Origin: Desulfobacterales bacterium
GTDB taxonomy: Bacteria; Desulfobacterota; Desulfobacteria; Desulfobacterales; UBA11574
Reading direction: 5' to 3'
NCBI GenBank assembly: GCA_046484425.1
Contig: JAWOIY010000183.1
Span: 83 to 64,082, forward strand
Length of the DNA: 64,000 nucleotides
The position numbers and the translations under genes were made by a program. A model generated the notes under the pieces. The model did not search any database. It worked only from the letters and a program-made list of their open reading frames with translations, and was not told the origin of the DNA. This document shows, one piece after another, positions 8,476-60,894 of the stretch (its first letter is position 1; every line of letters starts with the position of its first letter).

Positions 8476-11400
8476 TTATTCATCCTCAAAAGCCGACACC
8501 AGCAGGGCTTCAATTTTTGCCAGGAGCTGATCATCGGTGCTGTGCTTTAATTCGATGGCCTTTGCAGGACATTCAGCGGCACAGATTCCGCATCCCATGC
8601 ATGCCGACGGCGGAATTTCGGATACCCCCCTTTCATTGATAAACGGCGCACCGTATGGACATGCCCGAACACATGCCAGGCACGCCGCACACTTTTCAGG
8701 ATCGACTTCAGCAACAGCCGCGGATGTTTTCATCTGTTTTTTGCACAGAACTTTCATGGCCTGCTGTCCGGCACTTTTGGCCATGGTGACGCTCTCTTCA
8801 ATGAATCGGGGACTGTGTGCCAATCCGGCAAGAAAAATTCCGGAAGCGGCAAATTCCACAGGTCTCAATTTGACGTGGGCTTCGAGAAAAAACCCCATAT
8901 CGGTGGCCGGCAGTTTCAATAGATGAGCAATCTGCCGGGCACCTTCACCGGGGCGGATACCGGCGCTTAACACCACAAGATCGGGCTCAACACGAAAGTC
9001 CTGATGGGAGCTGCGATCCGTAAAATCGACGACCAGCTCACCGTTGTCATCATATACCAATGGTTTTTCTTCTGGGATGTATCGAAAAAAGAGAACGCCT
9101 TTTTGCCGGGCTTTTAAATAATACAGTTCTTTAAATCCAAAGGTTCTGACGTCTCGATACAATACAATCACCTGCGCACCGGGGTTAATTTCTTTGAACT
9201 CGATACTGTTTTTCACGGCAGCCGAACAACACACCCTGCTGCAATAGGGGAAATCCGGTTCCCGTGATCCGACACACTGAATCATGACAACCCTCTTTAG
9301 CCGACGGGCCCAGGTGGGATCGTCCAGAAGACGGTTTGAAAACTCCACTTGGGTGAGTACACGCGCATCCTTCCCGTATAAATATTCTTTTGGTTCATAC
9401 GGACGACCACCAGTGGCCACAACTACGGCCCCATACTGAATGTCGATGCGTTCGTCCGCCTTTTGAACCGAACCCTTGAATGCACCAAGATGTCCGCCAT
9501 GGGAAACGAGCCTGCTTTTCAGGTAAACAGAGATGTTCGGATGATGGACGATCCTTTCCGTGAGATAACGGATAAACCGCCTGGGGGAATGTCCTTCCAG
9601 TGTGAATCTGAGGTTCCTTGCAAAGCCCCCCAGCCCATCACTGCTTTCCACCAGGTGAACATGAAACCCTTGATCCGCAATGGTTAATGCGGCGGTCATG
9701 CCCGCCAGGCCGCCTCCGATGACAAGCCCTTCGTTCACCACCGGGTAAGATTTTTCATACAACGGCTCAAGTTTTATGGCCCGGGCCACACTGGCACGAA
9801 TCAATTCCTTTGACTTTTTGGTGGCTTTTTCCGGATCCTTGCCGTGAACCCAGGAACACTGATCCCGTATACTTGCCATTTCGAAAAGATACGGATTTAA
9901 ACCCGCCGCTTTCAGGGTCTCCCGAAACAGGGGTTCATGGGTTTTCGGTGAGCATGCCGCTACCACGACACGGTTTAACCGATGTTCTTTGATGAGGTCG
10001 ATGATGGCCTTCTGGGTTTCTGTGGCGCAGGTAAACATGAAATCGGTGGCAAAAACCACATGGGGAAGTTTTTTCACGTCTTCCAGAACATTCTGTATCT
10101 CAACAACGCCGGCGATATTGGTGCCGCAGTGACAAACCAGAACGCCCACTCTTGGCGTTGACTCAATGGGTGTTTCCGCCAAAATTTCTTCAACGGCAGT
10201 TTCGGCATATCTTGCATCACGGATAAGGATGGAGGCTTCGGCAGCGGCTGCACCGGCCTGGATGACGGTTTCGGGTATGTCTTTGGGAGATTCGATGCCG
10301 CCGCATACAAAGACACCCGGCCGGGAAGTCGCTACGGGCTCATCAAATTCTGTGGCTAAAAATCCGTAAGGATTCGTTACAAGCCCCAGCTTTTTGGCAA
10401 GGTCGACAAAATCATCTGATGGTTTGAAACCACTTGAAAGAACAACCAGGTCATATTCATCTTCTTGTTTTCTATTTAAATGATGATCAAAGGTTTCAAT
10501 GACCAGGTTCTCATTTTCAGGATTCAGATAAACCTGGGAAATCATCGACCTCCGGGTTCGTACGCCGTGCTGATTTCGGGCGCGGTCAATGTAGTCGTCA
10601 AACCCCTTCCCATGTGCCCGAAGGTCCATAAAATAGATGGTCGTTTGGGTTTCGGATTCATGGAGGCGGGTCAAAACCGCCTGTTTTGTGGCATGCATAC
10701 AGCACACGGAAGAACAAAAGGGGCGGTTTCGGGCCGGATCTCGGGACATGACACATTGAATCCAGGCCACTTTTTTGGGTACGTTGCCATCAGAAGGCCG
10801 GCTGAGGTGTCCTCCATAAGGGCCCGTGGCAGACAGCATGCGTTCATACTGCAGGGAGGTTACAACGTTTTTATATCTGCCGTAACCAAACTCTCCCTCT
10901 TCAGCCGTCAACGCCAGCTCAAAACCGGTCGAAAGGATTATTACACCTGCATCTATTTCCAATCGTTCAAATTTTTGGTCGAATTCAACGGCGTCTGCCG
11001 GGCAGATTTTTTGACAAACGCCGCATTTTCCTTTGGTTAAATACAGGCAATGTTCGGCATCGAGTGCATATTTTAAGGGAACCGCCTGGGGGAATGTCAG
11101 AAATGCCGCTTTGCGTGTCCCCAGCTCTCCGTTAAACGGATCGGGCACTTTTTGGGGGCATTTTTCAGCACACTTGCCGCAGGTAATGCATTTTTCTTCG
11201 TTAATATATCTGGGCTGCTTTTCAACCTGGGCCGTAAATCGGCCGGGACCGCCCGATATTTCCAGAATCCGGCTTAACGTCAGAATTTCAATATTCGCAT
11301 GACCGGCCGCCTGTACCAGTTTGGGAGAAAATATACAGGTTGAACAGTCATTGGTGGGAAATGTCTTGTCGAGACGTGCCATTTTCCCGCCAAGGGAGTG

Positions 11401-11532
11401 TGATTTTTCAATAAGATAGACATAAAAACCGGTATCCGCCAGATCGAGGGCACACTGAATGCCACCGATTCCGCCGCCCACAACGATCACTTTTCCCACC
11501 GGAGGTTTAAGATGAGATTCCATAATTATCAC
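8476..11532 (-). CDS. hdrA: HdrA-like FAD/Fe-S oxidoreductase, 1018-aa fusion form
   Basis: Two dinucleotide-binding folds (VVGGGIGGIQCA near the N-terminus and VIGGGLAGMTAA near residue 600). Ferredoxin motifs CITCGKCAEKCP, CGVCQKICP, CAACLACVRACP, CMGCGICAAECP. The GTG start overlaps the hdrB stop (GTGA). Confidence 0.85.
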   Translation of the reverse strand: MIIMESHLKPPVGKVIVVGGGIGGIQCALDLADTGFYVYLIEKSHSLGGKMARLDKTFPTNDCSTCIFSPKLVQAAGHANIEILTLSRILEISGGPGRFTAQVEKQPRYINEEKCITCGKCAEKCPQKVPDPFNGELGTRKAAFLTFPQAVPLKYALDAEHCLYLTKGKCGVCQKICPADAVEFDQKFERLEIDAGVIILSTGFELALTAEEGEFGYGRYKNVVTSLQYERMLSATGPYGGHLSRPSDGNVPKKVAWIQCVMSRDPARNRPFCSSVCCMHATKQAVLTRLHESETQTTIYFMDLRAHGKGFDDYIDRARNQHGVRTRRSMISQVYLNPENENLVIETFDHHLNRKQEDEYDLVVLSSGFKPSDDFVDLAKKLGLVTNPYGFLATEFDEPVATSRPGVFVCGGIESPKDIPETVIQAGAAAAEASILIRDARYAETAVEEILAETPIESTPRVGVLVCHCGTNIAGVVEIQNVLEDVKKLPHVVFATDFMFTCATETQKAIIDLIKEHRLNRVVVAACSPKTHEPLFRETLKAAGLNPYLFEMASIRDQCSWVHGKDPEKATKKSKELIRASVARAIKLEPLYEKSYPVVNEGLVIGGGLAGMTAALTIADQGFHVHLVESSDGLGGFARNLRFTLEGHSPRRFIRYLTERIVHHPNISVYLKSRLVSHGGHLGAFKGSVQKADERIDIQYGAVVVATGGRPYEPKEYLYGKDARVLTQVEFSNRLLDDPTWARRLKRVVMIQCVGSREPDFPYCSRVCCSAAVKNSIEFKEINPGAQVIVLYRDVRTFGFKELYYLKARQKGVLFFRYIPEEKPLVYDDNGELVVDFTDRSSHQDFRVEPDLVVLSAGIRPGEGARQIAHLLKLPATDMGFFLEAHVKLRPVEFAASGIFLAGLAHSPRFIEESVTMAKSAGQQAMKVLCKKQMKTSAAVAEVDPEKCAACLACVRACPYGAPFINERGVSEIPPSACMGCGICAAECPAKAIELKHSTDDQLLAKIEALLVSAFEDE

Positions 11533-12365
11533 AAAAGGCTTTTCTTTTTTAACAGCTGATCTGGGTTCGCAAAATGCATTTTAAACCATTTCGGATTTCC
11601 CCTGTCACTGAAACTCAACCGGAGCAACTCGGTAAAATAAAATATCGGAATCGGCCTTTCCAAACGATCTTTCTGAATCATATCAAGATTTGACTGACAC
11701 AGCGGGCAAGACACAACAACGGCTTCCGCGCCGGCCTGCCGTGCTTTTTCCAAAAGTTTTTTTGTCAGGGAATCTCCGATTTCCCTGCGAGCGATACCGA
11801 TGCTGGCACCGCAACAAGTTGCTTTATAAGACCAGTCAATCACCTGGGCACCGACAGCGGCTGCAATTCGATCAAGTGTTTGGGGATTCTCATAATCCGT
11901 ATAACCGGTAATTCTCGGTGGGCGTACCATCTGACATCCGTAATAGCATACCAATTTCAGACCTTTTAAAGGTTTCAAAACTCTTTTTTTGATCTGTTTG
12001 ATCATGTCCGGCTCCGCCAGAAAACGCGTCATGTCATGGACCCTCAAATCACCGGTCACCGGCCAGGGGATATCCAGAACGTTTTTTTGTATCATCTGTT
12101 GAGAAAATCGGAGACGATTGAAACAGTTGGCACATGGAGAGACGATATCAAGTCCCATTTGCTCTGCGGCAGACAGATTCCTTGCCGGCAAAATGACCGA
12201 CATGGCCTCGCTGAGACTGTGGGCAGCCGTGGCGCCGCAACAGGACCAGTCGTTGATCTCAATCAGATCAATACCCAGCGCTTGAAATACCGCATCAATG
12301 GATCGGGCATAATCGACAGCCATGCCTTCCAAAGAACAGCCGGGATAAAAAGACAGCTTCATCAA
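11529..12365 (-). CDS. hdrB: heterodisulfide reductase subunit B-like (two CCG domains)
   Basis: CCG motifs WSCCGATAAH and ATCCGASIG. The ATG overlaps the hdrC stop. Confidence 0.85.
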   Translation of the reverse strand: MMKLSFYPGCSLEGMAVDYARSIDAVFQALGIDLIEINDWSCCGATAAHSLSEAMSVILPARNLSAAEQMGLDIVSPCANCFNRLRFSQQMIQKNVLDIPWPVTGDLRVHDMTRFLAEPDMIKQIKKRVLKPLKGLKLVCYYGCQMVRPPRITGYTDYENPQTLDRIAAAVGAQVIDWSYKATCCGASIGIARREIGDSLTKKLLEKARQAGAEAVVVSCPLCQSNLDMIQKDRLERPIPIFYFTELLRLSFSDRGNPKWFKMHFANPDQLLKKKSLL

Positions 12366-12994
12366 ACAATTTCTCCGCGGGCATTTTTATATGCTTTTTG
12401 AATATCCTTGATGGGTTTTGACCTGGAGGTGAAGGGTTTCAGTCTTCCTTTTTTCAACAGGGTCAACCCCAGCAAAAGCTCCTCTTTAAGGTTCCCGCTT
12501 TTTATTTTTTCATACAATATATTCGGCTTTAAGTAATAGGCATTCATCAACCTGAATTCATTGACCCTGCCGGACTTTCTCAAGACCTCGAGAAAGGTCT
12601 GATGAAATACGGCAAGGTTCCTTTCTTTCGGTGTGATGGACGAATGTGCTGCAATGTTTCTCAGATGATTGATGACCTCCGCAACTCCCACTTCATTGGG
12701 ACAGTAAGTCGTACACATTTCACAGGACAAGCATACCCATATGGTCGACGATTTTAAAAGGTCTTCACGCCATCCCAGTTGAACATGACGGATGATCTGG
12801 TGAGGTTTGATGTCCATAAAATGACTGACCGGGCAGGCATTGGTGCAGCGCTCGCATTGGTAACACCGCGAAACATTCGCACCGGTCTCCCCTTCGATTT
12901 TTTTTAAAAAATAATCCCCTCTGTCTCCGATGAGTATTCTTTCAGATTTGGGTTCGCCTACGCGTTCTTGTTTCATAACGACGGTGTTCATCAT
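12362..12994 (-). CDS. hdrC: heterodisulfide reductase subunit C-like (2x[4Fe-4S])
   Basis: CYQCERCTNACP and CLSCEMCTTYCP cluster motifs; first gene of the hdrCBA string. Confidence 0.8.
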   Translation of the reverse strand: MMNTVVMKQERVGEPKSERILIGDRGDYFLKKIEGETGANVSRCYQCERCTNACPVSHFMDIKPHQIIRHVQLGWREDLLKSSTIWVCLSCEMCTTYCPNEVGVAEVINHLRNIAAHSSITPKERNLAVFHQTFLEVLRKSGRVNEFRLMNAYYLKPNILYEKIKSGNLKEELLLGLTLLKKGRLKPFTSRSKPIKDIQKAYKNARGEIV

Positions 12995-13098
12995 TTTCCC
13001 TTTTAAAATAAAAATGCCGATTCAACGGAAAAGAAAGGGCATCGATTGATCGAAAAAAAAGTGCCCGGAGCCAAGCAGCATATCACCTGAGCGTACAG

Positions 13099-13431
13099 TC
13101 ACCCGTGATTGTGGCACATTGTGGCATGCACTGTCAACAACAAAATGAAAACCCCTGTCATTCCGGGAGCCTGCCAGGGATTTTTTGGGGCTACAGCTAC
13201 GACCAAGGCTGTTGCGCTTTCTCTGTCGAGCAAAATTATTTTTTCCTGTTTAGAATCGATAGAATTAGTGGAAATCGGAATTTTACCGTTGCCAAACCAG
13301 CCTGCCCTGTTGCGAGCTTCGGTGCGGTTCACCTTGCCTTTTATCCCTGCGGCAAGCTGCAGGGTATTCGGGCGAAGGTGAATAAAACCGGATGCTCCGG
13401 AAACCACGATCCCCGATAATATCTCAGCCAT
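13099..13431 (-). CDS. hypothetical protein (coding status uncertain)
   Basis: 110-aa ORF whose ATG overlaps the upstream membrane-protein gene stop by 8 nt. No motif recognised, and its 3' end overlaps the putative hdr promoter. Confidence 0.3.
   Translation of the reverse strand: MAEILSGIVVSGASGFIHLRPNTLQLAAGIKGKVNRTEARNRAGWFGNGKIPISTNSIDSKQEKIILLDRESATALVVAVAPKNPWQAPGMTGVFILLLTVHATMCHNHG
13108..13137 (-). promoter_or_regulatory. possible sigma70 promoter for hdrCBA overlapped by a tandem 9-nt direct repeat
   Basis: The minus strand reads TTGACA (13137-13132), an 18-nt spacer, then CACAAT (13113-13108). The plus strand shows ATTGTGGCA-c-ATTGTGGCA (13108-13126) across the spacer and -10. 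Confidence 0.25.
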
Positions 13432-13867
13432 TTTTCCTACCCAATGCTGTACGTTTTTTTGAACGAAGATAGTGCTGAAGCGCCCAAAAAATAATCAGCC
13501 CCATCATACAGTCGGCAATTCCGGATAACAAGACAATCCATTTAAATTCAGCGGCAAAACAATACATCGTCAAAAAGAAAGTTGCGACCGCCTTTACGAA
13601 AATCGAAAATACAATGAAATGTTGGTATTTTTCGATATTGGTTGCTCCCGTTAAGTAAACAACGGACATGAGAAGATGAAAAACCCCGCCTTGGGCAGGA
13701 AAGAAGTGTTCATAATCCCCGCTGAAACCCGACAACTCCATTAAGACGGCCGGCTGAATGATCAGTACCAGTCCCATTACTATCGAATGTACGGCCACCA
13801 ATCCCAGCACGGTTTGAAGTGTTTTTTCAGGATACTTAAACAAATTTTCTTTTAAGTTACCACGCAT
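13424..13867 (-). CDS. small integral membrane protein (about 4 TM)
   Basis: Four hydrophobic segments (GLVAVHSIVMGLVLII, VFHLLMSVVYL, FIVFSIFVKAVATFFL, IVLLSGIADCMMGLIIFWAL). Confidence 0.55.
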   Translation of the reverse strand: MRGNLKENLFKYPEKTLQTVLGLVAVHSIVMGLVLIIQPAVLMELSGFSGDYEHFFPAQGGVFHLLMSVVYLTGATNIEKYQHFIVFSIFVKAVATFFLTMYCFAAEFKWIVLLSGIADCMMGLIIFWALQHYLRSKKRTALGRKNG

Positions 13868-14039
13868 ATCTCTCTGTTTTAGACCGAAGAAACAATGGTA
13901 TCATTTCTCATTGAAACAGATTGAGTGAAGGGGAAACGACTGCCCCCCTGAACACATACGAAAAATCAGAGGGTTGATTGCTGAAGAAAGGATATAAAAC
14001 AATCGGTGTATTGAACACCAACCGGGAATATCGTCAAGA

Positions 14040-14414
14040 TCACTTGATCACTGCCAAAACCTCGCAACTACGGCACACCTTCATCTTTTCCTTCCATTTT
14101 TCATGTGCTGTGCCACAGCAGATGGTTCCGTTAATAAACCAGCATAATTTTCCTGCCTGAAACTCCCATGCAGGGCATTCTTTTTTTTGTTTGGTGGGAC
14201 ATTTTTTGACAATCCAGCATGGTTTTTGCGTTTTTATCGCGCCTCTCTTTCTGGCCATCAAAAAAAACATTTGCCTTTCCACATGTGGGGGTATGGATCT
14301 CCAGCCCTGCTCGTAACTGTGAACGGCCTTGATGGACACTCCCAACAGCTGCGCCATTTGCTTTTGGGTTTTGTTTAATTTTTTGCGGAACCGTGAAAAT
14401 TCTTTCCCGTCCAT
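14040..14414 (-). CDS. XRE-family HTH regulator with C-terminal Cys/Trp-rich domain (two CW motifs)
   Basis: N-terminal LNKTQKQMAQLLGVSIKAVHSYEQG is an HTH_XRE motif. The C-terminus PCWIVKKCPTKQKKECPAWEFQAGKLCWFINGTICCG...CRSCE resembles what RefSeq labels a two-CW domain (from memory). Confidence 0.75.
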   Translation of the reverse strand: MDGKEFSRFRKKLNKTQKQMAQLLGVSIKAVHSYEQGWRSIPPHVERQMFFLMARKRGAIKTQKPCWIVKKCPTKQKKECPAWEFQAGKLCWFINGTICCGTAHEKWKEKMKVCRSCEVLAVIK

Positions 14415-14702
14415 AAATTTTTCCCTCGATTAAGCAAGTCGTGTTTCATCATATTTATCCTGCACTATGTGGCACTACACACCACATCCTGTCAATAAAA
14501 ATATTTCTTATAATCTTAGGTGTACCGGCAAGGACGGTATTGATATCCCGGGCTGCGTTCAAGGATGGTGCGTCCGGACATATCGAAAACAAAAAGGATC
14601 AAATCGATGACCGGCCGGATTTTACAGGCGATTGGATCGATGCGCGGTATGGGTAAGGTTGGATGATATCCGTTGTGGGGCATCTTTAATTTTGTTGAAG
14701 CG

Positions 14703-16511
14703 TCAGACACTGGTTGACCCTTGGGATGGAGCGGTCCCTCCCAGCACCATGGTCTCAAACTTCATCAGTTCTTCGTGCATTTTTCTTGAGATTTCATCGT
14801 ACTTTTGACTGATATCATAACGATAATCTGCATGAATTTTTTTGATTGTGTTTCGCATCTCCTTATTTATCTTGATCCGTTTTTTCCAGAGCTTTGCCAG
14901 ATATTGAAAATCTTCTTTTGAATTGTTCATCATCGATTCGGAATACTGATTCACCAAATCGCAAAAATAACGGTATTTCTCATCAAAAAATGAGGCGATC
15001 TTTTCGGTTTTCAGGGTTTGCTGCGTGATGGTATAAAAGTGATGCCCGGAAATACTCAGCGTGATGGCTTCGCCAAAAATACCGGGGTGTTTGATCATAT
15101 TACGAAAGACAAATTTGAGATATTGAAAACCGTATGGTGTAAAAAGCTGCCAGCAAATCGACCTGTATAAGATTTTCAGGTCTTGAAAATAAATTTTTCG
15201 CTGGAAATACTCTGTGTGCTCGACATTGTCCAAAAATCGGCTGCATCGTTCAAAATAATTTTTCAAATTAAAATCATAAATGCGAACCAGAATTTTTTTA
15301 TATCCTTCTCCGAGGCGCTTCGGATCCATGGTGGTTTTGAAGTTGGTGGTCATTTTGTGGGTATTGTTGCCAATAGAAGCCTTTAATATTCTGCCTTCCA
15401 TCATCAGCCGGTGATAAAGACGTGTCCCGGGAAGGGCGGTTAAAAAACCGATCATGGCTTTGGGAATGGCGTTCCGTTGAATAAAGTCGATTTGACGGTC
15501 AAAAATGTCCTCCTTATCGTTGTCAAATCCGACGATAAATCCTGCCATCACTTCCATTCCATGACGCTGGATCGTCCGAATCGAATGCTCCATATCTGTT
15601 TTTAAATTCTGTATCTTTCCGCTTTCTTCAAGTCCCTTGGGATCAGGGGTCTCAACCCCGATAAAAACCTGGTTGAATCCAACTTCCCGCATTGCCGTTA
15701 GTAACTTCTCATCTCTACCCATATCAATGCTGGCTTCGGTAAAAAAATGGTATGGGTAATCATGTTCGACTTGCCAGGCTTTCAGCGCAGGCAATAGCTC
15801 CGCCTTGACCCGTTTTTTATTTCCGATAAAGTTGTCATCAACGATAAACAGCGGTCCCCGCCAGCCCAGGTCAAAAAGGATATCAAGTTCTCTTAACAGG
15901 GTCGCGACAGATTTTAAACGTGGTTTGTTTCCGTAGATGGTCCAGATATCACAAAACTCGCAGTGAAAGGGACACCCCCTGGAGTACTGAACGGCCATGG
16001 AACCGTATGCGGTTAAATCCAAGAGGTCAAACCGCGGAACCGGCAAATTGGAAATATCCGGATAACAGGGTTTTGGATAAACAGGTTTTGCAGTACCTTT
16101 TTCCAGGTCTCGTAAAAAATGCAGCAATGTTTGATCGACTTCTCCGACAAGAAAATGGTCAACGCCGGCAATTTTCTTTTGATTTGATGTAACCAAGGGG
16201 CCGCCTGCGACAATGGTTTTGCCAAATCGGCCACAGCGTCGGATCACCTCTCGCATAGAGTCCTGCTGAATAATCATTGCGGAGATGAATACAGCGTCCG
16301 CCCAGTGGATATCGCTGTCTTCCAAAGGTGAAACATTCATGTCAACCAGTTTCAGGTCATACGTATCCGGGAAAAGGGCGGCGATGGTCAACAGCCCCAG
16401 CGGTGGCATGGCGCTTTTTTTTTGAATGAATTTCAATGCATATTTGAAGCTCCAGTAGGTATTGCTTGGCACCTTGGGATATACAAGAAGGATGTTTTTA
16501 TATCTGTGCAT
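14703..16511 (-). CDS. B12-binding radical SAM protein with C-terminal DUF4070-like extension
   Basis: N-terminal cobalamin-binding-like Rossmann region and radical SAM motif CPFHCEFC (CxxxCxxC) in YSRGCPFHCEFCDI; 602 aa. Confidence 0.88.
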   Translation of the reverse strand: MHRYKNILLVYPKVPSNTYWSFKYALKFIQKKSAMPPLGLLTIAALFPDTYDLKLVDMNVSPLEDSDIHWADAVFISAMIIQQDSMREVIRRCGRFGKTIVAGGPLVTSNQKKIAGVDHFLVGEVDQTLLHFLRDLEKGTAKPVYPKPCYPDISNLPVPRFDLLDLTAYGSMAVQYSRGCPFHCEFCDIWTIYGNKPRLKSVATLLRELDILFDLGWRGPLFIVDDNFIGNKKRVKAELLPALKAWQVEHDYPYHFFTEASIDMGRDEKLLTAMREVGFNQVFIGVETPDPKGLEESGKIQNLKTDMEHSIRTIQRHGMEVMAGFIVGFDNDKEDIFDRQIDFIQRNAIPKAMIGFLTALPGTRLYHRLMMEGRILKASIGNNTHKMTTNFKTTMDPKRLGEGYKKILVRIYDFNLKNYFERCSRFLDNVEHTEYFQRKIYFQDLKILYRSICWQLFTPYGFQYLKFVFRNMIKHPGIFGEAITLSISGHHFYTITQQTLKTEKIASFFDEKYRYFCDLVNQYSESMMNNSKEDFQYLAKLWKKRIKINKEMRNTIKKIHADYRYDISQKYDEISRKMHEELMKFETMVLGGTAPSQGSTSV

Positions 16512-25438: not shown

Positions 25439-26145
25439 TGGTACAAAAAAGAATATCCCGGTCCCGCAAAAGAGACCTTAATAACCCTGACGAGTTTGTA
25501 ACATTTTGGGCAAAAGTATTCGAGTCCATCGCTAAACATAAAGTTCAAGTCGCATGTATTTCGGGGTTTTTTGTTGTATCGATCATTGTTGCCGCGGTCA
25601 CTGTCTATTCTCTGAAAAAATCTGAAGATAGAGCCTTTGCGCTTCTTCAACAAGGTATCACCAAGTACCAGACGTTGTTGAAAACCGGTGATTCGAACAA
25701 GGCTTACCTGGATGCAGGAAAAGATTTTGAGCGGATAGCGGAAAAGTATTCAGGCCGAAATGGGGGGAAATTGGCCAGTCTTATTTATGCGAACATGTGT
25801 TATTCCGCTAAAGATTATGACAAAGCGATAGTGATTTACAAAAAATTGCTGACGGACTTTAATGATGAGTCATTTCTAAAAAATCTCATTTTAAACGGTC
25901 TGGGTTATTCCTATAGTGCTAAAAAAGATTACAGAAATTCAGTCGAGTATTTTGAAAGGATTGCAACAGCACCTGATTTTAGCCTCAAGGACGAAGCGCT
26001 TTTCAATTTGGGCGGGCTTTATGCTGCCATCGGAGATAACGACAAAAGTATAAACGCTTTTGAGAAAATTTTATCCGACCACTCCGGGTCCATGTATACT
26101 GAAATTGTCAAAGAAAAAGTAGCGGGACATCCAAACCGTTACTAA
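25438..26145 (+). CDS. membrane-anchored TPR protein (YfgM-like)
   Basis: One TM segment (ISGFFVVSIIVAAVTVY) followed by TPR-like repeats. The ATG overlaps the upstream stop. Confidence 0.7.
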   Translation: MVQKRISRSRKRDLNNPDEFVTFWAKVFESIAKHKVQVACISGFFVVSIIVAAVTVYSLKKSEDRAFALLQQGITKYQTLLKTGDSNKAYLDAGKDFERIAEKYSGRNGGKLASLIYANMCYSAKDYDKAIVIYKKLLTDFNDESFLKNLILNGLGYSYSAKKDYRNSVEYFERIATAPDFSLKDEALFNLGGLYAAIGDNDKSINAFEKILSDHSGSMYTEIVKEKVAGHPNRY

Positions 26146-26193
26146 ACTGATCGGTTTCAGGTCCAGGGTTCAAAAGTTACAACTGCTTGAATA

Positions 26194-26339
26194 GGATTGA
26201 TGATTCCAGGATGGATAATTATCGATTGTTGGAGCGAAGCGGGTTTGAACCCCCAGACCGTGTGGTCTGCCAAAGGTCTCTGATGGAGTTTATCGGAAAA
26301 AAAAACAATCATCCGTCATCAATTATCAATCAACAATCC
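26194..26339. repeat. imperfect terminal inverted repeats enclosing a tRNA-like T-arm/acceptor fragment
   Basis: GGATTGATGATT (26194-26205) versus AATCAACAATCC (26328-26339), 11/12 complementary; inner GATAATT/AATTATC. On the minus strand the enclosed segment reads GGGGG-TTCAAAC-CCGCT-TCGCTCC-A, i.e. a T-arm plus 3' acceptor strand with one G.G mismatch. No matching 5' half is present. Confidence 0.3.
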
Positions 26340-26378
26340 GAAATGCCCGACCTCACCCACCTGATGAAAAGGCTCCCC

Positions 26379-26417
26379 AAAAAAAAATGACCAATCGGCT
26401 AAATCCCATTGGTCATT
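26379..26417 (-). terminator. Rho-independent terminator
   Basis: 10-bp stem AATGACCAAT/ATTGGTCATT (26417-26408 / 26395-26386) with a 12-nt loop, followed on the minus strand by a T-run (A9 on the plus strand, 26379-26387). Confidence 0.5.
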
Positions 26418-26452
26418 AAGGAGGAAAACAGATGAAGAAATTATTAGGTTAA
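26379..26452 (-). ncRNA. candidate sigma54/enhancer-dependent small RNA (~70 nt) with anti-SD core
   Basis: Predicted start is ~12 nt downstream of the -12 GC. The RNA reads UUAACCUAAUAAUUUCUUCAUCUGUUUUCCUCCUUAAUGACCAAU-GGGAUUUAGCCG-AUUGGUCAUU-U9. There is no RBS-preceded ORF on this strand. Confidence 0.4.
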
Positions 26453-26462
26453 CATTTTAGAA

Positions 26463-26478
26463 TGCAAGTTTCTTGCCA
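26463..26478 (-). promoter_or_regulatory. sigma54 (-24/-12) promoter
   Basis: The minus strand reads TGGCAAGAAACTTGCA, with GG and GC in exactly the consensus register of TGGCAC-N5-TTGCW. Confidence 0.6.
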
Positions 26479-26608
26479 AAACATTTCAAAGGTCCTGCCA
26501 ATTTTTATATTCGTCGATTTAACAAATTAATTTAAAAAGTTATACCGCATATTATTTTTAATAATCTGTTTGGTTTTCTTCAGCCCCGCCTCATTTTCGC
26601 CATGAAAA

Positions 26609-26624
26609 GTTCAAAATTTTGAAC
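26609..26624. promoter_or_regulatory. proximal enhancer (UAS) palindrome GTTCAAAATTTTGAAC
   Basis: Perfect 16-bp palindrome, centre ~140 bp upstream of the -24 element. Confidence 0.55.
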
Positions 26625-26686
26625 ATCCATTTTAAAGCAAATAAAATAACATATTAATTCAATTAAGAATATCCTTAAAGCCGATC

Positions 26687-26704
26687 GGTTCAAAATTTTG
26701 AACC
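26687..26704. promoter_or_regulatory. distal enhancer (UAS) palindrome GGTTCAAAATTTTGAACC
   Basis: Perfect 18-bp palindrome, centre 79 bp from the proximal copy and 65 bp downstream of the NtrC-like gene stop. Confidence 0.55.
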
Positions 26705-26768
26705 ACTATGTGCACCAAATGGGATAACATATTGATATTAGTTAAAATATTATGGATTTCTCAACCAT

Positions 26769-28151
26769 TCAAGTTTTTGAACTGATGTCCAGTTCAAATT
26801 TTTTTATTTTCCAATTCAGTCCACTTTTGCCGATACCAAGCAATTCCGCAGCCTGGGATTGAACATTATCTGTTAATTTCAAAGCCCTTTCGATCATCTT
26901 TTTTTCGACCATTGCAAGAGTCTCATCTAATTTTGCATCGGCGGGAATTCCTTCAAAGTGCAGCGTGTTATAAACACTGTTCTTAAATTCCTTTGGAAGA
27001 TCTGCGACGCTTATTTTGTGGCTCTGACATAACACCATGGCCCGCTCGATAACATTTTCGAGCTCACGAACATTCCCGGGCCAGCTGTAATCGTAAAATA
27101 GACGTTCAACCTCCTTATCAAAACCTGTTATTGCAACATCGGACTTTCGCTCATCTGAATATTTACCAATAAAATGATCGGCCAGAAGACGAATATCTTC
27201 TTGACGATCTCTTAAAGTCGGCAGAACGATGTGGACCACATTCAACCGATAATAGAGATCTTCCCTAAATCTCCCTTGCAACATCTCATTTTTCAATTTT
27301 TTATTTGTTGCGGCAATAATGCGTATATCAACCCAAATCGGCTTAATTCCCCCAACCCGCTCAAAAACTTTTTCCTGAAGGACACGCAAAAGTTTTACCT
27401 GCAAATTTTGTGAAAGCTCGCCGATTTCGTCAAGAAAAAGAGTACCGCCGTCAGCAATCTCGAAACGACCTTTCTTCATCGCGACAGCACCGGTAAACGA
27501 ACCTTTTTCATGCCCAAAAAGCTCGCTTTCAAGGAGATTTTCAGCCAACGCGCTGCAGTTGACGGCAACAAAGGGTTTGTCGCGGCGTAAGCTGTTAAAA
27601 TGAATCGATTTCGCAACAAGTTCTTTGCCGGTACCACTATCGCCTTCGATCAACACCGTTGTGGTAACCGGTGCAACTTTTCGGATGGTTTCAAAAACAT
27701 CCTGCATCACCTTGCTCTTTCCAATGATATTTCCGAAACTATACTGTAATTTTACGGCATCCCTGAGTTGTCGGTTTTCTTTGACAACCCGATACATGCC
27801 AACGGCCTTATTCACATATATTACCAACCGATCGTTATCGAAAGGCTTGAGTATATAACTGTAAGCACCCTTCTGCATAGCCTCTACGGCCTTATCAACA
27901 GTACCGTAAGCTGTCATCATAATAACCGGAAGTTCTTTATCTTTTTTCTTGATTTTCTCCAGAAGTTCGATACCATCCATCGATGGCATTTTCATGTCGG
28001 TAAGCACCAAGTCTATGTCGGAATTTAATAGTATATCAAGCGCTTCAGGACCGCTGTTGGCTGTGAAGGTTTCGAATCCTTCTTCTTCCAGAACAGCACT
28101 TAATATCAACGGATAATTTTTTTCATCATCTACAATCAGGACGGTTTCCAT
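26769..28151 (-). CDS. sigma54-dependent response regulator (NtrC family: REC-AAA+-HTH)
   Basis: REC domain with phospho-acceptor context LVLTDMKMP. AAA+ domain with Walker A GDSGTGKE, sigma54-contact loop GSFTGA and ESELFGHEKG. C-terminal Fis-type HTH (QAAELLGIGKSGLNWKIKK). Confidence 0.95.
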   Translation of the reverse strand: METVLIVDDEKNYPLILSAVLEEEGFETFTANSGPEALDILLNSDIDLVLTDMKMPSMDGIELLEKIKKKDKELPVIMMTAYGTVDKAVEAMQKGAYSYILKPFDNDRLVIYVNKAVGMYRVVKENRQLRDAVKLQYSFGNIIGKSKVMQDVFETIRKVAPVTTTVLIEGDSGTGKELVAKSIHFNSLRRDKPFVAVNCSALAENLLESELFGHEKGSFTGAVAMKKGRFEIADGGTLFLDEIGELSQNLQVKLLRVLQEKVFERVGGIKPIWVDIRIIAATNKKLKNEMLQGRFREDLYYRLNVVHIVLPTLRDRQEDIRLLADHFIGKYSDERKSDVAITGFDKEVERLFYDYSWPGNVRELENVIERAMVLCQSHKISVADLPKEFKNSVYNTLHFEGIPADAKLDETLAMVEKKMIERALKLTDNVQSQAAELLGIGKSGLNWKIKKFELDISSKT

Positions 28152-29584
28152 TACGATATTCCCTGATTAACTTGATTAATAGGTAATACGACCGTAACAC
28201 AGGCGCCGACATCCGGTTTGTTGACAAGATTTACGCTTCCTTCATGCGATTGTATAATGTTTTTCACGATACCAAGGCCAAGTCCGGTTCCTTTTGCTTT
28301 TGTGGTAAAAAAGGGGTCCCATATTTTTTCCAATAGGTCTTCTGGAATCCCCTCTCCTTCATCTTCAAAAAATACTGTCACCGTACTATCAACTGAACAC
28401 ACTTTTACCTGAATTATGCCGCCCTCGGGCATCGCCTGCATTGAATTAATCAATACGTTAAGAAAAGCCTGATACAGCATATCAGAATCAGCGGATATCT
28501 CGGGCAATTCATCATCATAGTGTTTTTTTACAATATACCCTTCCTTTTCAATCTGTGGTGCCAGGAAAGAGATGTTTTTTTCGAGAATTTCCTCTATTTT
28601 ACAGGCCGTGAAATTTGGGCTCTTGGGTTTCGCAAAATTTAAGAAATCTGTTATAATATTATTTAATCGAGCGGATTCTTCAATGATTATATTTGGGATT
28701 GAACTTGAGGGATCGCAGTCGGCCATTTTTTTCTTTAAAAGTTCGGATGAACTTTTAATAATACCCAGCGGGTTGCGGATTTCATGAGAGATTCCAGCCA
28801 CCATTCCACCCAATGTCGATAAATGTTCTGCGCGATTTAATTGTTCTATGAGTTTTAATCTCTCTTGGGCACGTCTTTCTATAATACTTTCGCCCCTTTT
28901 GACCACAAACAGTAGAACTAAAAACAAAATGCCCATAACTACTGAACTGGTTATAATCACACGTATCTGAAAATCGAAAATGGCTTCATAATCTTCGGTT
29001 AAGTCTTGTACAATTTCAACGACTCCCAGAACCGGACCGGATATCCTGGAAAGCGGTTGTTCAGCACGTAATGGCGCATATGTAACCAATCGACTGTCTT
29101 GCGGAAAGCCGATTAAGATTTCAAACCAGGTGCCGTTTTGAACCAGATTTGAAGTAAATTTGCCTGAAATTGCGTCTTGATACCCTTTACCCCCGATATC
29201 TGTCTTGCCGATCACCGAATGGTCGAAACTGTATGAAATTGTGTTGGTCATATCGTAGATGTTAACCATATCAATCTTAAAGCTGTGAAGTGTGCTTCTG
29301 ACAACCTTATCCATGCGTTCAAATTGTTGTTCGTCACTGAGTTGAATCTTGCCGAATTTCAATGCAACCGGAAGGATGAACTGCAAAAAAACCTGGTGGT
29401 TAAGATTCTCGATCAGAAGGCGAGCGTAGTCCTCACTTTTTTTTTTCTGCATGGTTTTTGCCCAGTGTGTGTTGAGCAAAGAAAATACCAGAGTTCCGAT
29501 AAAAATTACGATCAGGCTTGTAAAGGTAAAGTACTTGACCAGTCTAAAAGGTTTAACTTTTTCTTCTGCTAAGTGGAGGTTCAT
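28151..29584 (-). CDS. sensor histidine kinase (two TM segments, periplasmic sensor domain)
   Basis: H-box SHEIRNPL, N-box NVLINSMQA, G-box GTGLGLGIV. Its stop overlaps the regulator ATG by 1 nt. The start is uncertain: ATG 29584 (MNLHLAEEK) is chosen, and the ORF extends to TTG 29671. Confidence 0.9.
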   Translation of the reverse strand: MNLHLAEEKVKPFRLVKYFTFTSLIVIFIGTLVFSLLNTHWAKTMQKKKSEDYARLLIENLNHQVFLQFILPVALKFGKIQLSDEQQFERMDKVVRSTLHSFKIDMVNIYDMTNTISYSFDHSVIGKTDIGGKGYQDAISGKFTSNLVQNGTWFEILIGFPQDSRLVTYAPLRAEQPLSRISGPVLGVVEIVQDLTEDYEAIFDFQIRVIITSSVVMGILFLVLLFVVKRGESIIERRAQERLKLIEQLNRAEHLSTLGGMVAGISHEIRNPLGIIKSSSELLKKKMADCDPSSSIPNIIIEESARLNNIITDFLNFAKPKSPNFTACKIEEILEKNISFLAPQIEKEGYIVKKHYDDELPEISADSDMLYQAFLNVLINSMQAMPEGGIIQVKVCSVDSTVTVFFEDEGEGIPEDLLEKIWDPFFTTKAKGTGLGLGIVKNIIQSHEGSVNLVNKPDVGACVTVVLPINQVNQGIS

Positions 29585-30031
29585 AGACAAGGTTAAAGTT
29601 TCTATCGTTTCATACCGATATTGGGTTATAATTATCTTTAAACGCAAAAAAAGATAGGATAACACCGGCAAAAAAAATGATTGGCTTTTAAGCTTTTAAG
29701 AATATACGGAAATCAACATTTAAAGTCAAGATAATGCGTTATTTTCATTGATACTATAATAATTTATTGTTTCATGATTAAATTACTTAACGTATATTTT
29801 TGATTGAATTTTTGATTGGCCTTATTTTACCTTTAATTATATAGTACCATATATATGTATATCCATTTGAAAAACCACCAAATAAAGTAATTGATTAAAA
29901 TTTGTCTATAATTATATATAAAAGTTCTTGAGTTATCACATAATATAAGGTATATTATGGGAATTGTAATTTGATCCTTTGTTCACATTAATGTTGTGTA
30001 TTTTTTATGCGTGACTTTTAAAGGCTTTTGA

Positions 30032-30229
30032 ATGCAAAGCAACCACTTAAGAAAAATCAGAGAGTCTTTGCTGATGAGCAAGACCGAACTGGCCAGAAAG
30101 GCCAACGTATCTCCGATTACAATTGCGCGTGTCGAAAAAGGGATGCCGTGTCGTCTTGAAACTCAGCGAAAAATTATTTTGGCCCTCGGGTATGACCTTT
30201 CTGACAAAAAAAAGATTTTTGGTGATTAA
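30032..30229 (+). CDS. small XRE-family HTH protein
   Basis: 65 aa, LLMSKTELARKANVSPITIARVEKG HTH motif; ends 7 nt before pilM. Confidence 0.75.
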   Translation: MQSNHLRKIRESLLMSKTELARKANVSPITIARVEKGMPCRLETQRKIILALGYDLSDKKKIFGD

Positions 30230-58509: not shown

Positions 58510-58957
58510 TCATAAAGGGCGGAACTTGCGCTCAGTAGACCGGTCAAGCATCAGCACGGAATAGAATATCCACAGTTGGGTTATAAAAAGTGGGGAGATC
58601 GCTGAACCTTGCAAGAATGAATGATACAGTCCGCCGGTATCCGTTACGGTTAGATCAAATGTAAGGACAGCACCCTCTGGTCCTACGTCCGGCGCCTTAA
58701 AGGTCGGCTGAAAGGAAGTCGGATCGGACAGGGTTACGCCCGTGCCGCCGGCTTGGGTCCAAATAAGAGGAAATGCCGTCATCAATATCTACAGAAGAAG
58801 AACCGTCTAATGCAACAACAATCCCTTCAGTTACAGTCTGATCAGGTCCGGCATTCGCCTGGGGAGGCTCATTTTGCCATGTTACGTTTACAACACACCC
58901 ATCTTTTCCCTGATTTTCATAACACACGCCACTTTCTCTTTGCATTGGATAATTCAT
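58510..58957 (-). pseudogene. frameshifted relic of a PKD/Big-repeat surface protein
   Basis: Frame A gives ...ANAGPDQTVTEGIVVALDGSSSVDIDDGISSY. It continues in another frame as LIWTQAGGTGVTLSDPTSFQPTFKAPDVGPEGAVLTFDLTVTDTGGL. This is a single PKD-like repeat split by a frameshift near 58785, without the rest of a large protein. Confidence 0.6.
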
Positions 58958-60073: not shown

Positions 60074-60496
60074 TCAGTTTTGTGCCTTTTTTGAAGAAAT
60101 TAGTTCATTGATGGCTTTGTCAAGTTCAGAAAGTCGAAATGGTTTTGACAATATCTTGTCCGCTTGGGAATTTGTAGCAAACTCTCCGGGATATCCCCCC
60201 CATCCAGTTATTATTATAACAGGTATGTTGGGGAATTTTGTCTTAATAATTGAAATAAGGCCTATTCCGCTTATTCGTGGCAAAACGATATCTGTAATGA
60301 CCAGGTCAAATCCGTGATGATCATTTTCAAGTAATTTCAATCCTTCCAAACCATCAATAGCTGAGGTGACATCGTACATTTTTTCATTAAGAAAATAGCA
60401 AAGGTTTGCTAAGACATGTTCGTCGTCATCGATTATTAGTAATTTTAGAGACGGTCCCATTCTATTTAAATTGACATTTAATTTAGTTTTTTCCAT
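60074..60496 (-). CDS. stand-alone response-regulator receiver (CheY-like)
   Basis: LLIIDDD, phospho-acceptor context LVITDIVLP, conserved Lys context ILSKPF; no output domain. Confidence 0.8.
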   Translation of the reverse strand: MEKTKLNVNLNRMGPSLKLLIIDDDEHVLANLCYFLNEKMYDVTSAIDGLEGLKLLENDHHGFDLVITDIVLPRISGIGLISIIKTKFPNIPVIIITGWGGYPGEFATNSQADKILSKPFRLSELDKAINELISSKKAQN

Positions 60497-60818
60497 TTGT
60501 TAATGGTAAGATTTTGTGGTTTTTATCAAAACAGATTGCCATGCCTTGTTGGCTTGTTCGAATTACAGATCCTGTAAAATATATATGAGATATTTTACTC
60601 TTCACATTTTTAAATTTGTTCAGAGGAAGAATAATATCTAACTTAACATCAGTTCCGACCGTCAATGGTTTATTTGTTTTGAAAAAAGTACCTCCTGCAC
60701 AGATATTACTGGTCAGTAGTGTATATGATTTCTGCTGTTCGCTCTTATCAGTCACTGAAAGATAGGTGGTAAGTTCAAGATCAAACCTTTCCATCTTTCT
60801 CTTTTCGATTTCGACCAC
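60483..60818 (-). CDS. PilZ domain protein
   Basis: RxxxR motif (RKMER) near the N-terminus and a D/NxSxxG-like NICAGG; 111 aa. The GTG start is needed to keep the RxxxR motif. Confidence 0.65.
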   Translation of the reverse strand: MVEIEKRKMERFDLELTTYLSVTDKSEQQKSYTLLTSNICAGGTFFKTNKPLTVGTDVKLDIILPLNKFKNVKSKISHIYFTGSVIRTSQQGMAICFDKNHKILPLTNGKN

Positions 60819-60878: not shown

Positions 60879-60894
60879 AGCAATTGATGTGCCA
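60879..60894 (-). promoter_or_regulatory. sigma54 (-24/-12) promoter upstream of the PilZ-receiver operon
   Basis: The minus strand reads TGGCACATCAATTGCT, a full match to TGGCAC-N5-TTGCW. The predicted start is ~50 nt upstream of the PilZ start codon. Confidence 0.6.

Follow-up and report, generated by a model that had tools for sequence, protein, structure and literature searches.

The DNA under study is a 64,000-nt stretch from a Desulfobacterales bacterium (GCA_046484425.1, contig JAWOIY010000183.1, positions 83-64,082, forward strand), referred to here as the window. A gene for a sensor histidine kinase (28151..29671) and one for an NtrC-family response regulator (26769..28151) form an operon on the minus strand, and the pair is conserved at all orthologous loci. 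The kinase translation possesses two hydrophobic, transmembrane segments on either side of a periplasmic domain of ~170 residues, followed by the HisKA and HATPase_c domains recognized by Pfam. The regulator is a bacterial enhancer-binding protein with Pfam Response_reg, Sigma54_activat, AAA_lid_14 and HTH_8 matches, namely a receiver domain, a sigma-54 AAA+ domain with a GSFTGA loop, plus a helix-turn-helix at the C-terminus. Pfam searches and a motif scan agreed with the original prediction that this protein is the sole sigma-54 activator encoded in the window, in which the combination of GSFTGA with the Walker A motif GDSGTGKE is unique to it; it is the presumed activator of the promoter described below. 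The regulator scored beneath the NCBIfam equivalog cut-offs for AtoC (520 vs. 714 bits), NtrC (456 vs. 559), ZraR (420 vs. 760), LuxO (395 vs. 800) and GlrR (376 vs. 763). The 64-kb window contains no rpoN gene. A TPR gene is oriented toward the locus in almost every lineage; in the window it is part of a convergent TPR-PfkB operon and ends at 26145.

The locus is adjoined by a pilMNOPQ operon, and this proximity is the sole feature held in common with the PilS-PilR-pilA module. Assignment to that module was rejected as the kinase has two transmembrane segments and a periplasmic domain and does not resemble the multi-spanning PilS type. A scan of the window and of related loci detected no pilin signature (G-F-T-L-I-E), and the sigma-54 promoter has no ORF after it, in keeping with the earlier failure to locate a pilin gene here.

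The minus-strand sequence TGGCAAGAAACTTGCA (26463..26478) places GG at -24 and GC at -12 and is an exact match to the sigma-54 consensus. As originally reported, it fits TGGCA-N6-TTGCW precisely (26478-26463), and it is one of only two exact matches in 64 kb. With one mismatch or fewer permitted, the window holds eight matches compared to 9.8 expected. The match alone is not beyond chance, but its conservation is: the GG and GC dinucleotides in the TGGCAC-N5-TTGCW frame are kept in 12 of 12 lineages, the string TTTGGCARGRAAnTTGC shows little or no variation among them, and the pairwise identity of the promoter is 0.91. The known behavior of these families implies that the promoter would depend on sigma-54.

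Three predicted enhancer sites are located upstream of the promoter on the minus strand. Their centers lie at approximately -165, -244 and -323, which corresponds to a spacing of 79 bp in the window; across all lineages the spacing is 75-79 bp. The proximal site, UAS3 (26609..26624), is the perfect 16-bp palindrome GTTCAAAATTTTGAAC (identity 0.90), and the middle site, UAS2 (26687..26704), is the perfect 18-bp palindrome GGTTCAAAATTTTGAACC (identity 0.84 across lineages). These two palindromes were described correctly in the original prediction: GTTCAAAATTTTGAAC occurs exactly at 26609-26624 and at 26688-26703, with centers 79 bp apart (-164.5 and -243.5 if transcription starts at ~26452), and 65 bp separate the regulator stop codon (26769-26771) from the more distal of the two. 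By contrast, the degenerate third copy that was proposed at 26167-26184 lacks conservation, as it falls in an insertion present only in the window. The actual third site, UAS1 (26767..26782; GTTCAAAAACTTGAAT on the minus strand, TTCAA-N4-TTGAA, pairwise identity 0.92), is placed 79 bp farther upstream, where it overlaps the regulator stop codon. As the equivalent site sits 24-55 nt past the stop codon in loci L176 and L182, UAS1 is a DNA element and not a product of coding constraint. The sites therefore constitute repeated inverted repeats upstream of a sigma-54 promoter that are conserved with the regulator, which is the arrangement of an enhancer array for proteins of this class. Adjacency and co-conservation suggest that the adjacent regulator binds them. 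Lineages that lack the locus show a W to Q change in the recognition helix of the regulator, which is suggestive of binding to the UAS sites, with two cases only. The 79-bp spacing represents 7.5 helical turns and is unusually wide for cooperative activator binding, which counts against such binding.

IHF-like boxes are situated on the minus strand between the enhancer sites. The box TATCAATATGTTA (26725..26737), a perfect match to WATCAANNNNTTR, lies midway between UAS1 and UAS2, and AATTAATATGTTA (26647..26659; one mismatch) lies midway between UAS2 and UAS3, within the 79-bp tandem unit (family D2). A possible further box, AATTAATTTGTTA (26520..26532; one mismatch), is positioned between UAS3 and the promoter and is weakly conserved; TATAAC and TAAAT islands near it are invariant. 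Boxes within 8 nt of the midpoint were found in 13 of 21 inter-UAS spacers against an expectation of 0.56 from shuffled sequences, and all but one of the 13 are 2.5-4 nt from the midpoint. The consensus match and the known behavior of these families suggest that IHF may participate.

Downstream of the promoter is a predicted small RNA of ~72-76 nt (26377..26452, minus strand) that was delimited with covariance model R1, folding and conservation. It consists of a 33-nt single-stranded 5′ arm, AACCUAAUAAUUUCUUCAUCUGUUUUCCUCCUUAA (26450-26418), that holds UUUUCCUCCUUAA; a 12-bp terminator hairpin (26417-26386; arms at 26386-26398 and 26405-26417); and a conserved run of eight U residues (26385-26377). 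The hairpin with its U-run had been foreseen, as had the absence in the window of an RBS-preceded ORF after the promoter, and comparison of orthologous loci revealed no conserved ORF in the RNA region on either strand. The minimum free energy of the fold is -16.7 kcal/mol (z = -3.8), with the 5′ arm unpaired. The element thus has the make-up of the Hfq-type module of trans-acting, base-pairing small RNAs: a candidate seed that is unstructured, followed by an intrinsic terminator hairpin with a U-tail at the 3′ end, and no ORF. The arm reads as the antisense of an idealized translation start, comprising UAAGGAGG, a 7-nt spacer, AUG, and AAG AAA UUA UUA GG. A search of the window with model R1 gave one match (26380-26450, minus strand, 99.3 bits), and no extra copies were found with the model in the window or in any related locus; across loci, the single RNA copy is ~320-390 nt past the regulator stop codon. 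Comparison with Rfam 15, which includes Qrr, Pxr, GlmY/GlmZ, CrcZ and suhB/MmgR, produced no gathering-level match anywhere in the window, and nothing usable emerged at E ≤ 10 in the 700-nt region. The lowest E-value below threshold was for suhB (RF00519; 16.8 vs. 41 bits, E = 0.86), and rli38 scored 18.0 vs. 49 bits (E = 8.9). This comparison, one of the checks suggested in the original prediction, leaves the RNA without a matching family and bears out the view that it resembles neither Qrr nor Pxr. The locus is a predicted, previously undescribed small-RNA gene of an already known kind.

Orthologous loci were reached via protein clusters and the contigs that encode them; scans of public genome and metagenome contigs with the regulator were swamped by the generic ELFGHEKG motif and yielded only L001 and L081. 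The comparison set comprised 11 further distinct loci whose regulators are 80-98% identical, or 12 lineages with the window included, and block identities were calculated pairwise among 10 aligned lineages. Alignment of orthologous loci and a covariation test had also been put forward as checks, and both supported the prediction: the promoter, palindromes and hairpin are conserved beside all 11 further regulators. Every block is kept (84-95%) in 11 of 11 further readable loci, whereas spacers are 39-51% identical. Pairwise identities were 0.84-0.92 for the UAS sites, 0.91 for the promoter and 0.95 for the 5′ arm of the RNA, compared to 0.39-0.51 for spacers. Identity steps from 0.39 in the spacer at -11 to -1 to 0.95 at the predicted start site; the conserved block opens 1-3 nt from the start predicted off the -12 element and closes at the U-run. 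Compensatory changes were evident in 5 of the 12 stem pairs of the hairpin, and 95% of cells are paired, a level that none of 500 shuffles reached; the G.U pairs in the hairpin are valid solely on the strand of the regulator. The DNA and RNA elements, their strand and boundaries, and the selective constraint on them are established by the sequence and its comparison among lineages.

Substitutions in the arm are mostly C-to-U (positions 17, 20, 27, and 30). Such changes would preserve G.U pairing with an unchanged partner, but could merely reflect AT-biased mutation. The CCUCC core is altered to UCUUC in L183 and to CCUUC in L175 and L178, which weakens a strict anti-Shine-Dalgarno reading. The element is absent beside the regulator in L001 and L081 (76-77% identity), which have an intergenic gap of just 10-30 bp, and in L181, a 3.4-Mb genome in which the downstream region is rearranged with N-runs and integrases; this genome was unsuitable for the target search. 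As the element is missing in these three loci, the regulator probably has or had other targets.

Taken together, the evidence favors, with a probability of roughly 0.7, a stand-alone small-RNA gene that provides a local, and possibly the main, output of the adjacent two-component system. A periplasmic signal would be sensed by the kinase, which would phosphorylate the regulator. Regulator dimers would occupy the three TTCAA-N4-TTGAA sites at ~79-bp spacing, and bends at the IHF-like boxes midway between the sites, and probably also between UAS3 and the promoter, would draw the dimers together. The resulting oligomer, using ATP, would open the sigma-54 promoter at 26478-26463. Transcription would start at ~26452 and stop at the intrinsic terminator (26417-26377), generating an RNA of ~72 nt whose invariant, unstructured 33-nt arm most likely pairs in trans with the RBS region of at least one mRNA from another locus and blocks translation. 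Pairing in trans and masking of the RBS are suggested by the anatomy of the RNA.

The search for targets encompassed the 64-kb window and, at each related locus, as much as 10 kb to either side of the regulator. The best translation-start duplex in the window involved the gene at 52873 (-26.2 kcal/mol), a value equalled or surpassed by 19 of 150 seed-shuffled controls. Neighboring genes displayed no consistent pairing with the RNA across loci. The start of pilM in L166 matches at 17/20 positions, but this pairing lacks conservation and is weak, at -9 to -11 kcal/mol in most loci. A scan of viral contigs disclosed no perfect target sequence. An extended form of the pairing proposal, which we consider unlikely, is that the whole 33-nt arm, and not just CCUCC, is contiguously antisense in trans to the start of one gene, including its Shine-Dalgarno sequence, spacer, AUG, and first five codons of M-K-K-L-L-G. 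The RNA would then be an inverted copy of the 5′ end of its target that was captured under a sigma-54 promoter, with C-to-U changes tolerated as G.U wobbles. A near-perfectly complementary target start would read UAAGGAGGAAAACAGAUGAAGAAAUUAUUAGG. As pilMNOPQ adjoins the locus and MKKLLG is of pilin leader-like length, a pilin is conceivable as the target, as is some other protein that is secreted or belongs to the envelope. If so, the RNA would furnish a post-transcriptional arm where PilR-type systems normally control transcription.

An alternative to mRNA pairing is that the RNA binds or sequesters a protein, such as Hfq or a factor for translation or RNA decay, or is a general anti-Shine-Dalgarno decoy. 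Near invariance of the arm over 33 nt (0.95) far exceeds the usual seed of 7-12 nt and is explained more easily by a protein footprint or overlapping functions, no specific mRNA target was identified in the scans of the window and related-locus flanks, and CrcZ, which has a sigma-54 promoter beside cbrB, provides a precedent for titration of Hfq/Crc (PMC8871633). However, the arm is devoid of repeated protein motifs, as it contains two A-R-N triplets at most and lacks the GGA expected for CsrA; it is short and single, in contrast to multi-site sponge RNAs; and its contiguous complementarity to a Shine-Dalgarno-spacer-AUG unit is most simply an antisense of a translation start. Protein binding or a decoy role in place of pairing with specific mRNAs is accordingly regarded as distinctly improbable.

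The hairpin and U-run might instead serve chiefly as the terminator of the kinase-regulator operon, with the block a 3′-UTR element of its mRNA and any small RNA derived mostly from read-through or processing of the operon transcript and not from a promoter of its own. Minus-strand prediction gave no intrinsic terminator from the regulator stop codon as far as the hairpin, so that the operon transcript could reach the latter. Nevertheless, a near-invariant sigma-54 -24/-12 element stands at exactly the right distance, identity falls to 0.39 in the ~11-12 nt before the block and is ~0.5 across the ~320-nt would-be 3′ UTR outside the enhancer and IHF-like sites, and three conserved enhancer sites would be senseless for a mere 3′ UTR. 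This origin for the RNA appears quite improbable, and the two origins are compatible as an RNA driven by the promoter could use the terminator of the operon.

It is very improbable that the promoter serves antisense or convergent interference, in which read-through transcripts would be antisense to the 3′ end of the TPR-PfkB operon and the short RNA a by-product. The TPR gene is convergent in nearly all lineages, and its stop codon is separated from the U-run by as little as ~25 nt (L165), but this gap extends to ~230 nt elsewhere, there is no conservation of sequence 3′ of the U-run, and the strong terminator (12 bp plus U8) is conserved and exhibits covariation. Moreover, L176 retains the RNA although it lacks TPR and PfkB genes downstream.

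The plus-strand micro-ORF AAGGAGG-N8-ATG (MKKLLG, 26432..26452), named in the original prediction as the functional unit that would overturn it, has a strong Shine-Dalgarno sequence ideally spaced from its ATG in the window, and the sigma-54 consensus alone is no rarer than chance, but the micro-ORF was rejected as the ATG is ATA in four lineages (L165, L166, L172, and L180) and neither the stop codon nor the length is conserved (the frame runs on in L166); the U-run, G.U pairs and promoter all indicate the minus strand, and conservation of every block in 12 lineages excludes chance assembly, which makes either explanation scarcely credible.

The proposed stand-alone small-RNA gene has parallels in well-studied systems. 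In Myxococcus xanthus and other Cystobacterineae, the Pxr small-RNA gene is directly 3′ of the sigma-54 response-regulator gene nla19 on the same strand (PMC5568312), in line with the original statement that Pxr adjoins an NtrC-like regulator gene. In both cases a few hundred nucleotides with enhancer sites and a sigma-54 promoter intervene (262 nt for Pxr, ~320 here; PMC5568312). Pxr measures ~108 nt, folds into three stem-loops and undergoes processing to long and short forms, unlike the RNA here, with ~72 nt, a single terminator hairpin, and an anti-RBS arm that is unstructured. The two RNAs have no sequence or covariance-model similarity, and the neighborhoods differ, with NADH dehydrogenase at Pxr and TPR/PfkB and pilMNOPQ here. 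The closest match in promoter architecture is GlmY (GlmZ) with GlrK/GlrR (QseE/QseF) of Enterobacteriaceae, in which the small-RNA gene also adjoins its own two-component system and the sigma-54 promoter is activated from three sites >100 bp upstream that are interspersed with conserved IHF-like sites (PMC3045617). However, GlrR recognizes TGTC-N10-GACA sites at closer spacing, glmY is upstream of the two-component genes, and GlmY acts as a structured decoy for the protein RapZ whereas the arm here is of anti-RBS type; the regulator also falls below the GlrR cut-off, as noted above.

Qrr1-5 with LuxO in Vibrio and CrcZ with CbrB in Pseudomonas similarly couple an NtrC-type regulator and sigma-54 to small RNAs as the main output of the pathway. 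LuxO binds short palindromes in a style similar to the sites described here. In contrast, Qrr RNAs are multi-copy with several stem-loops, the present regulator is below the LuxO cut-off, and there is no model match. CrcZ, whose gene is immediately 3′ of cbrB (PMC8871633), is ~400 nt, sequesters Hfq/Crc, and likewise gave no model match. The alpha-proteobacterial anti-Shine-Dalgarno RNA MmgR/alpha-r8 (RF00519, suhB) has the stretch UUUCCUCC in common with the RNA, just before a terminator hairpin and U-run, but the likeness is limited to this generic module: the first stem-loop of MmgR is absent here and the taxon is unrelated.

Among sulfate reducers, two response regulators of Desulfovibrio vulgaris that act with sigma-54, DVU0653 and DVU0679 (Dv_sRNA2), have a downstream ncRNA as their main or only target (PMC3333781, PMC4641369). 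Compared by layout and not by RNA sequence, the arrangement of two-component regulator gene, binding site, sigma-54 promoter and ncRNA is the same in this member of the former Deltaproteobacteria; the order and the regulators are different (GAYTGS in DVU0679, GAFTGA in DVU0653, and GSFTGA here). The parallel originally drawn with known small RNAs dependent on sigma-54 and enhancer-binding proteins is thus apt, with the layout matching Pxr/nla19, GlmY/GlrR, CrcZ/CbrB and the Desulfovibrio ncRNAs. As earlier work describes such a layout, in sulfate reducers among others (PMC4641369, PMC3333781), the suggested novelty was overstated and the RNA is a new case of a known design.

The locus leaves current understanding of sigma-54 or small-RNA biology unchanged, and adds a well-delimited predicted small-RNA family with its full control region and without an Rfam match. 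A two-component system with a sigma-54 small RNA as its local output would extend the design known from Vibrio, enterobacteria, Pseudomonas, Myxococcus and Desulfovibrio to this clade. The array of enhancer and IHF-like sites, with three 79-bp units, is an unusually clean case in which to consider the assembly of widely spaced activator dimers, and the covariance model, promoter pattern and palindrome offer handles for metagenome annotation and, when entire genomes are searched, for locating targets of the RNA and the regulon of the regulator. The hosts, relatives of sulfate reducers, belong to a Desulfobacterales clade that is uncultured and abundant in the environment and includes a member labeled Candidatus Desulfatibia, and loci L161-L183 are from sediments and wetlands.

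The NtrC-family response regulator gene (26769..28151, minus strand) encodes REC, sigma-54 AAA+, AAA_lid_14 and HTH_8 domains with a GSFTGA sigma-54-contact loop. On this evidence the protein is the sole sigma-54 activator in the window, as had been proposed, and it scored under every cut-off against the NCBIfam equivalogs, including AtoC, NtrC, ZraR, LuxO and GlrR. In minus-strand order its stop codon (26771-26769) is accompanied by three TTCAA-N4-TTGAA inverted repeats, UAS1 (26782-26767), UAS2 (26704-26687) and UAS3 (26624-26609), spaced by exactly 79 bp, and then by the sigma-54 -24/-12 element TGGCAAGAAACTTGCA (26478-26463), an exact consensus match. The sequence AACCTAATAATTTCTTCATCTGTTTTCCTCCTTAATGACCAATGGGATTTAGCCGATTGGTCATTTTTTTTT begins 13 nt past this element, and no RBS-preceded ORF was found downstream of the promoter in the window. 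The coordinates and distances in the original prediction were all reproduced, except for a degenerate third palindrome at 26167-26184, which lies in a ~120-nt stretch that is absent even from L161, whose regulator is 98% identical, and is not conserved. The real promoter is preceded, at a distance of 22 bp, by a second, imperfect sigma-54-like element, TGGCAGGACCTTTGAA (26485-26500, minus strand). It has one mismatch, TTGA in place of TTGC, and its TTGGC.GG portion is retained in several lineages, but not in all.

With the regulator as query, scans of genome and metagenome collections yielded only L001 (77%) and L081 (76%) as moderately close relatives. The protein database held >100 clusters at 80-98% identity, and orthologous loci were obtained by fetching the contigs that encode them. 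The complete set of elements was present in the same order and orientation in the window and 11 distinct lineages (L161, L165, L166, L172, L175, L176, L177, L178, L180, L182, labeled Candidatus Desulfatibia sp., and L183). The promoter, palindromes and hairpin are thus kept beside the regulators of these lineages. Mean pairwise identities across ten aligned lineages were 0.92, 0.84 and 0.90 for UAS1, UAS2 and UAS3, respectively, 0.91 for the promoter, 0.95 for the 5′ arm of the RNA, 0.75 for the hairpin and 0.78 for the U-run. The intervening segments gave 0.49 and 0.51 (inter-UAS spacers), 0.51 (UAS3-to-promoter interval) and 0.39 (-11 to -1). Conservation set in no more than 1-3 nt from the start predicted by the -12 GC (26452) and ended with the U-run.

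As RNA, the first 33 nt of AACCTAATAATTTCTTCATCTGTTTTCCTCCTTAATGACCAATGGGATTTAGCCGATTGGTCATTTTTTTTT are unpaired and are followed by a 10+2-bp hairpin and the U-run, with a minimum free energy of -16.7 kcal/mol (z = -3.8 compared to shuffles). Pairing in RNAalifold was confined to the terminator stem, in which 5 of 12 pairs carried compensatory double changes. In a model-guided alignment of 12 sequences, 95% of cells were paired and double changes occurred in 13; in 500 shuffles neither the pairing nor the covariation score of the real alignment was ever reached, and pairing collapsed in slid registers. Four stem cells hold G.U or U.G pairs that would be mismatches on the opposite strand, and the conserved U-run and promoter also indicate the minus strand. 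A family-derived covariance model recovered the RNA exactly once in the window (at 26380-26450, scoring 99 bits) and gave one match per orthologous locus, with zero matches in the loci of more distant relatives. On the plus strand, the exact complement of the arm reads as a micro-ORF (AAGGAGG-N8-ATG, MKKLLG). This micro-ORF is not the conserved unit, as ATA replaces ATG in four lineages (L165, L166, L172 and L180) and the stop codon is shifted or lost between lineages.

The UAS region consists of tandem ~79-bp units (repeat family D2). In most lineages the regulator's stop codon falls within UAS1. In L176 and L182, UAS1 sits 24-55 nt beyond the stop and is therefore a DNA element rather than a side effect of coding. 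Boxes that differ from the IHF consensus WATCAANNNNTTR at no more than one position occur in constant orientation in the UAS1-UAS2 spacer (26737-26725, minus strand, a perfect match) and the UAS2-UAS3 spacer (26659-26647, minus strand). A weaker box (26532-26520, minus strand) is in the UAS3-promoter interval, where TATAAC and TAAAT islands are invariant. Of 21 spacers from 12 lineages, 13 had a box no more than 8 nt from their midpoint, usually offset by 2.5-4 nt, compared to a mean of 0.56 and a maximum of 4 in shuffled spacers; the lineages are related, so that the argument is one of conservation and not of independent counts. With 79-bp spacing, adjacent palindromes face opposite sides of the helix. 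A sharp bend midway between sites would bring bound dimers side by side, and the consensus match suggests that IHF may bend the array in this way.

At the DNA level the locus has the textbook form of an enhancer-dependent promoter, and the adjacent regulator is therefore taken as its presumed activator. In anatomy the predicted RNA resembles a base-pairing regulator, being a short transcript with a U-tailed terminator and an unstructured, near-invariant arm. The complement of this arm reads UAAGGAGG, a 7-nt spacer, AUG and a further 14 nt. Most of the substitutions within it are C-to-U (positions 17, 20, 27 and 30), and would preserve wobble pairing with an unchanged partner, although AT-biased mutation accounts for them equally well. 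Among translation starts in the window, the best match to the arm (that of the gene at 52873) was equalled by 13% of seed-shuffled controls, and the arm did not pair consistently across loci with pilM, the HTH_3 gene, the two-component genes or other neighbors. No target could be named within 64 kb plus up to 10 kb of flanking DNA on either side, a scope at which this result is uninformative. It is likely that the locus is a small-RNA gene that depends on an enhancer and on sigma-54, and action in trans by masking ribosome-binding sites is slightly favored; the combined reading is assigned a confidence of 0.72. The original observation stands, and its interpretation is supported as far as sequence comparison permits.

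No Rfam family matched the region, just as no sequence resemblance to Qrr or Pxr had been seen originally. The lowest E-value among the weak matches was for suhB/MmgR (16.8 bits; threshold, 41), a likeness limited to the common module of anti-SD and terminator. The locus shares its working design with pxr, which has a sigma-54 promoter and follows the gene of the sigma-54 response regulator nla19 at a distance of 262 nt (PMC5568312); with glmY, which adjoins glrK-glrR and whose activation proceeds from three GlrR sites interspersed with IHF sites (PMC3045617); with crcZ, just downstream of cbrB (PMC8871633); and with the ncRNAs targeted by DVU0653 and DVU0679, two sigma-54 response regulators of Desulfovibrio vulgaris, immediately downstream of their own genes (PMC3333781, PMC4641369). 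By sequence, the locus belongs to none of the families tested. The RNA is therefore a new, unannotated family of an already well documented design, and the main value lies in annotation and in the tidy three-unit enhancer/IHF-like array.

The entire element is absent from L001 and L081, in which the regulator and TPR genes are just 10-30 bp apart. L181 (CP070768.1, a 3.4-Mb MAG chromosome) is rearranged directly after the regulator (11383-16310): an HTH_32 fragment, two phage-type integrase genes and two ~100-nt N-runs replace the RNA/TPR/PfkB neighborhood. One N-run begins ~334 nt past the stop codon, the position of the RNA in other loci, but the sequence ahead of it contains no enhancer sites or promoter, and the locus gave no match to the RNA. 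These loci show that the RNA locus is either specific to one clade or mobile within genomes. The HTH recognition helix GKSGLN[W/Q]KIKK has Q in L001 and L081, both without the RNA locus, and W in the window, the remaining DNA-binding domain being nearly identical (L001 7195-7374; L081 1075-1254; window 26772-26951, minus strand).

The histidine kinase (28151..29671, minus strand), translationally coupled to the regulator, has a ~170-aa periplasmic domain flanked by two transmembrane segments and is therefore not PilS-like. No pilin gene was found in the window or in the related loci scanned for one, in agreement with the original prediction. Divergent from the kinase-regulator pair are a 65-aa HTH_3 (XRE-type) gene (30032-30229, plus strand) and pilMNOPQ. 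The HTH_3 gene, directly upstream of pilM, is conserved in all orthologous loci, with 450-600 bp between it and the kinase gene. On the other side, a convergent TPR protein gene ends at 26145, with a PfkB kinase gene upstream of it. In the interval from the RNA terminator to the TPR gene (26146-26376), the ~120 nt present in the window alone and missing in L161 include a string, GGGGGTTCAAACCCGCTTCGCTCCA (26230-26254, minus strand), that resembles a tRNA T-arm and acceptor end; ARAGORN called no tRNA there. Elsewhere in the window, a full-length c-di-GMP-I riboswitch aptamer (RF01051, 59020-59103, minus strand, 83.4 bits) is closely followed by an 86-aa ORF (58697..58957, minus strand). A second exact sigma-54 consensus, TGGCACATCAATTGCT (60879-60894, minus strand), is ~60 nt upstream of an ORF (60483..60818, minus strand) that is followed by a REC-only response regulator (60074..60496, minus strand).
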